Positions 61,937 to 62,556 of a DNA stretch of 64,000 bases are shown here, piece by piece. Below the pieces are notes generated by a model. The model searched no databases, was not told the DNA's origin, and saw only the letters and a program-made list of their open reading frames with translations. The stretch is from Escherichia coli. GTDB lineage: Bacteria > Pseudomonadota > Gammaproteobacteria > Enterobacterales > Enterobacteriaceae. The number at the start of each line of letters is the position of its first letter. Positions within the stretch are counted from its first letter, which is position 1. The stretch is from NCBI RefSeq assembly GCF_022846255.1, contig NZ_AP025682.1; one strand, given 5' to 3'. A program made the position numbers and the translations under genes.

Positions 61937-62556
61937 GGCACGGACTGCTGGCGCTGATTTGCTGGCTGTGTTGTGTTGTTGCCCATAGCGAAATGCTGAA
62001 TGTCGAACAATCCGGGCTGTTTCGCGCGTGGTTTGTACGCATTGCACAGGAACAGCTCCGCCAGGGGCCAAGTCCGCGCTGGTATCAGCAGGATTGTGCG
62101 GGCCTGGTGCGATTTTCGGCGAACGAAGCGCTGAAAATTCACGACAGCAAATGGCTAAAAAGTAACGGTATAGCAAGTCAGTATTTGCCGCCTGAAATGA
62201 CGCTAACACCTGAACAGCGTCAACTGGCGCAAAACTGGAATCAGGGGAACGGAAAAACCGGCCCCTATGTGACCGCGATTAATTTGATTCAATATAACAG
62301 CCAGTTCATTGGCCAGGACATAAACCAGGCGCTGCCTGGCGATATGATTTTTTTCGATCAGGGCGATGCCCAGCACTTAATGGTCTGGATGGGGCGTTAC
62401 GTCATCTACCACACCGGAAGCGCCACGAAAACTGACAACGGAATGCGCGCAGTCAGTCTGCAACAACTTATGACATGGAAGGACACCCGATGGATACCCA
62501 ACGATTCCAATCCCAATTTCATTGGCATTTATCGTTTAAATTTTCTGGCGCGATAG
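61933..62556 (+). CDS. yfaT: YfaT, DUF1175-family protein
   Basis: ORF 61906..62556; [17 protein letters not shown]... from 61933, 207 aa; start overlaps yfaA stop. Confidence 0.8.

Follow-up and report, generated by a model that had tools for sequence, protein, structure and literature searches.

We find that the Escherichia coli gene yfaS is most likely translated from an ATG at position 62490, which lies 67 nt inside the coding sequence of the upstream gene yfaT, as judged from sequence comparison across Gammaproteobacteria. We assign a probability of roughly 80% to the explanation as a whole, in which yfaT contains an embedded initiation site for yfaS. The shorter start carried by RefSeq, which yields a protein without a signal peptide, is probably wrong. 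The overlap is already in the curated annotation of strain K-12, and no published description of it was found in the literature that we searched. The result is a start-site correction that concerns a known kind of arrangement and is not new biology. All positions refer to the window, i.e., the whole stretch of 64,000 nt that was analyzed, unless another locus is named.

The yfaT-yfaS locus

The window region is from E. coli and is 100% identical to strain A25, and the genes within it are arranged in the order gyrA, yfaA, yfaT, and yfaS. The yfaT coding sequence extends from 61933 to 62556 on the plus strand, ends with the stop codon TAG at 62554-62556, and encodes an NlpC/P60-like protein of the DUF1175/MagC family. 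Its product matches the Pfam DUF1175 model (E=3.6e-58) and the MagC structure in PDB entry 7bk8 (E=9e-103), and the latter match takes in the C-terminal residues that are encoded in the overlap. From its best-supported start, ATG 62490, yfaS extends on the plus strand to 64000 and continues past the end of the window. The whole gene in the identical strain comprises 4605 nt, including the stop codon, and encodes 1534 aa.

To assign YfaS to a class, we used three features of type II bacterial alpha-2-macroglobulins: an MG2 domain, no CxEQ motif, and an operon that also contains the genes for DUF2138, DUF1175/MagC, YfaQ, and YfaP. A Pfam scan of the N-terminal 503 residues of YfaS returned MG2 as the sole match (E=4.7e-22), no CxEQ thioester motif was found in the 1534-aa protein, and the operon has the order yfaA-yfaT-yfaS-yfaQ-yfaP. 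Because all of these features are present, YfaS is a type II bacterial alpha-2-macroglobulin of the YfaS/MagD class. NCBIfam holds no model for YfaT or YfaS, and a search of the PDB by sequence returned no structure of the YfaS/MagD type and a distant match to CD109 alone. In K-12, yfaS is a pseudogene with an internal stop (b4500), but the gene is intact in the strain of the window, which means that K-12 ribosome-profiling and proteomic data are of limited value for the question of the start site.

The annotated overlap between yfaA and yfaT is of the classical 4-nt type (ATGA, 61933-61936), and a mechanical list of open reading frames carries yfaT upstream to GTG 61906. Beyond the window, the yfaS stop codon directly abuts the yfaQ start with zero gap (L001, 11095-11096), yfaQ and yfaP are 4 nt apart (L001, 12745-12750), and the whole operon appears tightly packed.

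Candidate start codons for yfaS

Relative to yfaT, yfaS is read in the -1 frame, which is open from 62436, after a TGA at 62433-62435. Its first start-type codons are ATG 62475-62477 and ATG 62490-62492, followed by TTG 62565 and GTG 62580. The initial annotation had placed both ATGs inside yfaT, upstream of the TAG at 62554-62556, which was confirmed by reading the frames. Its estimate of an overlap of about 66 nt was close for ATG 62490, from which the overlap is 67 nt, whereas from ATG 62475 the overlap would be 82 nt. The 67-nt segment from 62490 to 62556 (plus strand) is dual-coding and specifies both the C-terminal residues of YfaT and, in the -1 frame, residues 1-22 of YfaS, so that the embedded initiation site falls in the last 22 codons of yfaT.

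The curated K-12 record (NC_000913.3) lists yfaS at 2329798-2334402 and has yfaT starting at 2334336, which corresponds to a yfaS start at the equivalent of 62490 and to a 67-nt overlap with yfaT. The 1534-aa YfaS of this exact sequence is public as UMS41081.1 and WP_251282512.1. In the RefSeq/PGAP annotations of strain A25 and of a K-12 assembly, yfaS starts at the equivalent of GTG 62580, which results in a protein of 1504 aa, the commoner form in the public protein cluster. The 1539-aa form that would start at ATG 62475 is absent from public protein collections. No experimental mapping of the yfaS start was found in the searched literature, and the supplements of INRI-seq (in vitro initiation-site profiling) and PIRT-seq (reporter-fusion mapping) contain nothing on yfaS, yfaT, or yfaA. 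[quoted passage not shown]

Conservation of the probable embedded start

In a single sequence, an out-of-frame ATG near the end of a gene is common by chance. We scanned one genome per species and obtained 80 loci from four Escherichia species, Superficieibacter, Entomohabitans, Serratia, Yersinia, Edaphovirga, Enterobacillus, Aeromonas, Pseudomonas, and a Lysobacterales MAG, which together with the window give 81 sequences; seven more distant loci were also collected. About 65 of the 80 loci are from Pseudomonas species, so the counts given here are not counts of independent events and overstate the number of such events.

Throughout the 81 sequences, the C-terminus of YfaT/MagC, which ends in (V/I)YRLxFLxR, is collinear with that of E. 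coli, and the yfaS frame stays open across the overlap and back to at least -100. The codon at the 62490 position is ATG in 80/81, with TTG in the Lysobacterales MAG, and the 67-nt geometry is found in 78 of the 81, with 64 nt in the remaining three. Cronobacter, a metagenomic relative of 46% identity, and 98 of 101 complete metagenomic junctions also display the 67-nt geometry. For the 46%-identical relative, a GTG at the 62490 position is the sole possible start, and the JGI gene caller likewise calls the 67-nt overlap. One further distant relative has GTG at this position along with an ATG fused to the magC stop (ATGA), another has ATG there along with ATGA, and two have CTG, in which the Arg codon is CGC, and feature clear separate starts after the magC stop. 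A pattern scan of metagenomes showed A at the start position in 104/104 matches, but the flanking 25 nt were required to be identical, so the scan is not independent evidence and cannot separate a role in the start codon from a role in an ANGGA motif. Escherichia, Superficieibacter, Entomohabitans, and the loci L021/L034, L052, and L048/L056 have no start other than the embedded one that would yield a signal peptide.

The ATG, the Shine-Dalgarno sequence, and the 67-nt geometry are kept across genera through rare synonymous codons, which argues against chance. The comparison indicates that the embedded-start arrangement has been kept from E. coli to Pseudomonas and that the overlap is real and ancient.

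Synonymous codons and the probable ribosome-binding site

ATG 62490 is formed by an Arg-Trp codon pair of yfaT, CG(A TG)G. The initial annotation had proposed synonymous-site conservation as a check on the overlap, and the yfaT frame supplied a positive answer. At the Arg column, CGA is used in 69 of 70 high-GC loci (99%), compared with 1.5% of the Arg codons in the same genes, and the other invariant Arg columns of yfaT are mixes of CGC, CGT, and CGG. The Ile codon that follows CGA-TGG is ATA in about 89-90% of the high-GC loci versus 1.3% expected, ACA accounts for 98% of the Thr codons at the column before the Shine-Dalgarno sequence versus 1.9%, and the Gln codon 24 nt upstream of ATG 62490 is CAA in 100% versus 18%. 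Among 94 conserved columns for which an A-ending synonym is possible, the median third-position A fraction is 0.01, and the fraction exceeds 50% across the 70 high-GC loci in five, all of which lie in a 12-codon block at 62461-62496 (plus strand, yfaT frame: CAA CAA CTT ATG ACA TGG AAG GAC ACC CGA TGG ATA). Elsewhere, divergence among the sequences is substantial, with a mean pairwise difference at four-fold sites of 0.31.

This block is the embedded translation initiation region and contains three ANGGA motifs. Its A-ending codons extend to the CAA codons at 62461-62466, which are 24-27 nt upstream of ATG 62490, and CAA 62464-62466 is invariant in 81/81. At one column within the overlap, the enrichment for A fixes no particular YfaS residue, which points to selection at the nucleotide level for an accessible ribosome-binding site rather than selection on the peptide. 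Codon usage thus indicates that synonymous sites of yfaT are under selection that preserves the downstream start and ribosome-binding site.

The yfaT codons for W-K-D contain a Shine-Dalgarno-like GGAAGGA at 62477-62483 (plus strand), and the 6-nt spacer that separates it from ATG 62490 is within the range of 5-9 nt that we used for such sites. The duplex energy with the 3' end of 16S rRNA in the window is -5.5 kcal/mol for ATG 62490 and +1.3 for ATG 62475. Over the 81 sequences, the mean energy is -5.4 kcal/mol for the embedded start, versus +1.1 for the upstream ATG and -0.6 for the ATGA start. Relative to background positions, the Shine-Dalgarno strength at the embedded site ranks in the top 16% and no higher. 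A 39-nt sliding fold over 540 nt was weakest 12 nt upstream of the embedded ATG, with -2.4 kcal/mol compared with a mean of -9.0 kcal/mol. The site resembles a ribosome-binding site that is weakly folded and sufficient by itself, and the weak local folding suggests that it could act without upstream unwinding. An Rfam scan of 61800-63000 produced one chance-level match and no family that matches the region, and folding of 62440-62620 was no better than that of shuffles (z = -0.10). The block of A-ending codons is longer than a Shine-Dalgarno sequence and start codon require.

The conserved third-position A's could serve another function at the RNA level, such as ANGGA motifs for CsrA/RsmA, in which case the AUG would be a side product. 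According to this alternative, the block at 62461-62496 is mainly a CsrA/RsmA site or other RNA element in which the AUG arises incidentally, and translation of yfaS begins in another way, e.g., through reinitiation at an ATGA outside of Escherichia. The motifs AUGGA, AAGGA, and AUGGA do occur within 20 nt (62475-62494), with two conserved synonymous A's each positioned two bases before a GGA. An ATGA is present at the end of yfaT/magC in 65/81 and kept by A-ending last codons. The mag operon of P. aeruginosa is controlled by RsmA, through the magA leader (PMC3735191). We nevertheless consider this alternative very unlikely, because it leaves Escherichia and at least three other lineages with no alternative start, and because the few departures from A at the start position are to G (twice) and T, each still compatible with a start codon, with C occurring only where a separate start exists. 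Furthermore, the RsmA site that is known lies in the magA leader, magA is the one mag gene mentioned in papers on RsmA CLIP and modelling, and the supplements of E. coli CsrA CLIP-seq contain nothing on yfaS, yfaT, or yfaA.

Our standard for a CsrA/RsmA site was at least two GGA motifs (ANGGA) located 10-63 nt apart over a ribosome-binding site, plus demonstrated binding. The junction resembles ribosome-binding sites that are repressed by CsrA/RsmA in that several ANGGA motifs cover the Shine-Dalgarno sequence and start and in that the orthologous operon belongs to the RsmA regulon. It differs in that the documented site is in the magA 5' leader, whereas the candidate site here would be internal, and in that the GGA triplets are forced by the Trp-Lys-Asp and Trp-Ile codons. 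It is possible that a candidate CsrA/RsmA site overlies the ribosome-binding site of yfaS, which would complement initiation at ATG 62490 and not replace it.

Initiation at ATG 62475 (62475-62477, plus strand), the first in-frame ATG after the upstream stop codon, is another alternative, which we regard as highly improbable. The codon at this position is ATG in 76/81, and the A that makes it, kept by the rare ACA codon, is conserved at 93%. However, this ATG is preceded by no Shine-Dalgarno sequence, as the duplex energies above indicate, and the codon is CTG in the other five sequences. The two upstream ATGs of Cronobacter are separated by an in-frame TGA, so the 62475 equivalent is excluded there and only the 62490 equivalent can be used. 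The conserved A is directly 5' of the Shine-Dalgarno sequence of ATG 62490 and is explicable as part of that site. We rejected ATG 62475 as a credible start on these grounds and on the absence of its product from protein collections.

The predicted signal peptide of YfaS

Initiation at ATG 62490 would give YfaS a predicted Sec-type signal peptide of 38 residues (62490-62603, plus strand) that is composed of an n-region at 62490-62546 and a hydrophobic core at 62547-62597. The n-region is mildly basic, with 2 K/R, 1 D/E, and 2 H among 19 residues, and the core has a mean Kyte-Doolittle value of 2.7 over 11 residues. Heuristic analysis predicted cleavage at an A-N-A site, before GAT 62604, with DD following. 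We recognized substrates of Sec and signal peptidase I by a basic n-region, a core that spans about 10 residues or more, and small side chains at -3 and -1, and by this heuristic the presequence from 62490 has each of these features. An alignment showed that the YfaS orthologs all have a signal peptide immediately before a conserved mature N-terminus, the motif of which begins with (E/D). A homolog search with the N-terminal 300 residues of YfaS returned no proteins longer than about 520 aa, with many partial or frameshifted ones among them, and was used for comparison of N-termini only. In P. aeruginosa, MagD was found to be periplasmic using its first 64 residues fused to mCherry (PMC3735191). 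The initial annotation had read the N-terminus as a Sec signal peptide, which fits both the signal peptides of the orthologs and the location of MagD.

The RefSeq/PGAP model holds that yfaS starts at GTG 62580 (62580-62582, plus strand), or at TTG 62565 (plus strand), without overlap and that conserved yfaT residues create the upstream ATGs incidentally. Annotation errors often account for long out-of-frame overlaps, and the large majority of RefSeq genomes of E. coli currently have yfaS annotated from GTG 62580. As had been anticipated in the initial annotation, which suggested comparing alternative N-termini, these later starts remove the signal peptide: 13 residues remain before the cleavage site from TTG 62565 and 8 from GTG 62580, and neither presequence has an n-region or a usable hydrophobic core. 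Yet the orthologs all have a signal peptide and MagD is periplasmic. Furthermore, no Shine-Dalgarno sequence is visible upstream of GTG 62580, the GTG is missing from some Escherichia species (L005 and L007) and thus is not conserved even inside the genus, and conserved yfaT residues leave the rare CGA, ATA, ACA, and CAA codons unexplained. We therefore view this model as extremely unlikely. The initial annotation had allowed for either a real overlapping start or a misplaced one; the overlapping start appears to be real, specifically at 62490, based on its Shine-Dalgarno sequence, its presence in 80/81, and the Cronobacter TGA, and the misplaced start appears to be the GTG of RefSeq/PGAP.

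We also considered a lipoprotein signal, a Tat signal, and an extended signal peptide, and rejected all three. The residues I-A-A-C (62553-62564, residues 22-25, inside the core) fit the lipobox pattern that we applied, [LVI][ASTVI][GAS]C, but the Cys is not conserved, being Tyr in Escherichia sp. L006 and missing in other genera, and the type II class has been described as without a lipobox (PMC3735191), which makes lipidation of YfaS unlikely. A Tat signal would feature S/T-R-R-x-F-L-K just before the core; E. coli has T-Q-R-F, and in Pseudomonas the R-R is >20 residues before the core. The extended signal peptide region (ESPR) of autotransporters and two-partner secretion proteins is similar in that a long N-terminal extension precedes an ordinary Sec signal on a very large exported protein, and in Pseudomonas a complete classical signal, starting with Met, comes after the extension. 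The differences are that YfaS has no sequence similarity to ESPR, with no ESPR match in the Pfam scan of the N-terminal 503 residues, and that the sequence of its extension is largely dictated by the overlapping yfaT/magC frame.

The ATGA start and its loss

Where yfaT/magC ends in ATGA, a start at this ATG leads to a short classical signal, e.g., MNRLLAVALLALMPLAAHA followed by EDE. The last sense codon of yfaT/magC ends in A in 73/81 (CGA or CAA), which suggests that the ATGA start is also selected where present, and in genera with this start the embedded one may be used little or not at all. Escherichia, Superficieibacter, Entomohabitans, and Cronobacter have a TAA or TAG stop and no ATG at the yfaT stop. 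In the window, the corresponding codon is ATA 62553-62555 (ATAG at 62553-62556, plus strand), an apparent relic of the start that is ATG in 65/81. Within the enteric clade that lacks ATGA, a yfaT Leu is encoded by the rare codon TTA, which specifies a Lys beside the core in the yfaS frame, and CTG or TTG would specify Glu. This choice of TTA is consistent with translation of the yfaS frame and reflects a single clade.

A programmed -1 frameshift would call for a conserved slippery heptamer with a stimulatory structure downstream. Frameshifting at U UUA AAU (62535-62541), which is a canonical slippery heptamer in the yfaT frame and would carry yfaT ribosomes into the yfaS frame to produce a fusion protein, is barely conceivable. 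The heptamer occurs in Escherichia only (UUUAAAC in Cronobacter), with none in the other 76 sequences, including Superficieibacter; no significant folding was detected around it (z = -0.10); the fusion would bury the signal peptide within a protein; and the TTA codon is better explained by the Lys next to the hydrophobic core. The heptamer is probably a side effect of that TTA encoding Lys in the yfaS frame.

A model for YfaS initiation and export

Initiation of yfaS at ATG 62490 would proceed as follows. The W-K-D codons of yfaT would supply the GGAAGGA Shine-Dalgarno sequence and the CGA-TGG pair would supply the AUG, with the run of A-ending synonymous codons keeping the site weakly folded. 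Ribosomes would bind at AUG 62490 and read the -1 frame, and the first 19 or so residues, which are encoded by the overlap, would form a long basic n-region ahead of a core that begins at 62547, just before the yfaT stop. Export by Sec and cleavage after A-N-A would then release a mature periplasmic alpha-2-macroglobulin-like protein, which would be the same whichever start is used. Because the signal peptide would be cleaved off, the initiating residue would not be visible in the mature protein. The embedded arrangement is probably ancestral to the yfaS/magD family in Gammaproteobacteria, with the Escherichia clade having lost ATGA when TGA changed to TAA or TAG and now depending on the embedded start. 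We infer that this loss was tolerable because the embedded start already existed.

Overlaps between same-strand genes of an operon are typically 1 or 4 nt (ATGA or TAATG). Like coupled overlapping operon genes, yfaT and yfaS are co-directional neighbors in one operon, the Shine-Dalgarno sequence and start of yfaS are in the 3' end of yfaT, and the codon choice of the upstream gene appears to be shaped by the downstream site. In contrast, the yfaT/yfaS overlap is 67 nt, out of frame, and constant in length between E. coli, Pseudomonas, and more distant lineages, and most yfaS/magD lineages carry both the 67-nt start and the ATGA start. Translational coupling, which the initial annotation had suggested, is a candidate feature here. 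As an example, the gene pair would show cleanly that a long out-of-frame overlap can be genuine and ancient instead of an annotation error.

The practical value of these findings is the correction of a widespread RefSeq start for yfaS and possibly of the magD start in P. aeruginosa. In most RefSeq genomes of E. coli, and by extension in many related records, YfaS seems to be truncated by 30 residues at its N-terminus. The truncation removes the signal peptide and would lead localization predictors to call a periplasmic protein cytoplasmic. The start also matters for cloning yfaS/magD from the annotated position or for deleting yfaT/magC, because the last 90 nt of the upstream gene would hold the ribosome-binding site of the downstream gene. 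Changing CGA to CGC at 62488-62490 would be silent in yfaT and convert ATG to CTG in yfaS, which offers a way to separate the two genes experimentally.

The magC-magD junction of P. aeruginosa

The P. aeruginosa genes magC and magD (PMC3735191, PMC5764988) are orthologous to yfaT and yfaS, respectively. The two junctions share the conserved embedded ATG with its Shine-Dalgarno sequence, and the mature N-terminus follows A-x-A in both. They differ in that P. aeruginosa also has an ATGA start and a third, annotated ATG, both of which are absent from E. coli. Three options therefore exist for MagD: the embedded ATG with its Shine-Dalgarno sequence, the ATGA start, and the annotated ATG 27 nt past the magC stop. 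The published MagD signal peptide consists of 26 residues and ends in AAVQA, with EDT following (PMC3735191 Table 2). Inspection of the junction suggests that translation of MagD may really begin at a site, or sites, other than the published start.

A broader proposal, which we consider unlikely but worth stating, is that the embedded ATG with its Shine-Dalgarno sequence is the ancestral and still-used start of all type II alpha-2-macroglobulins, including MagD, that these 165-kDa proteins carry two-part signal peptides, and that the ANGGA motifs provide a second point of CsrA/RsmA control. If so, the annotated start of MagD would be too far downstream, the first half of a two-part extended signal peptide would be dictated by the C-terminus of the upstream protein, and the ANGGA cluster would be an internal CsrA/RsmA control point that sets the ratio of MagD to MagC. 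At the P. aeruginosa junction (L084, 2900-3110), the embedded ATG gives a product that begins MDPRRIQSQ… and the ATGA start one that begins MNRVPVKTTA…, and both are in-frame.
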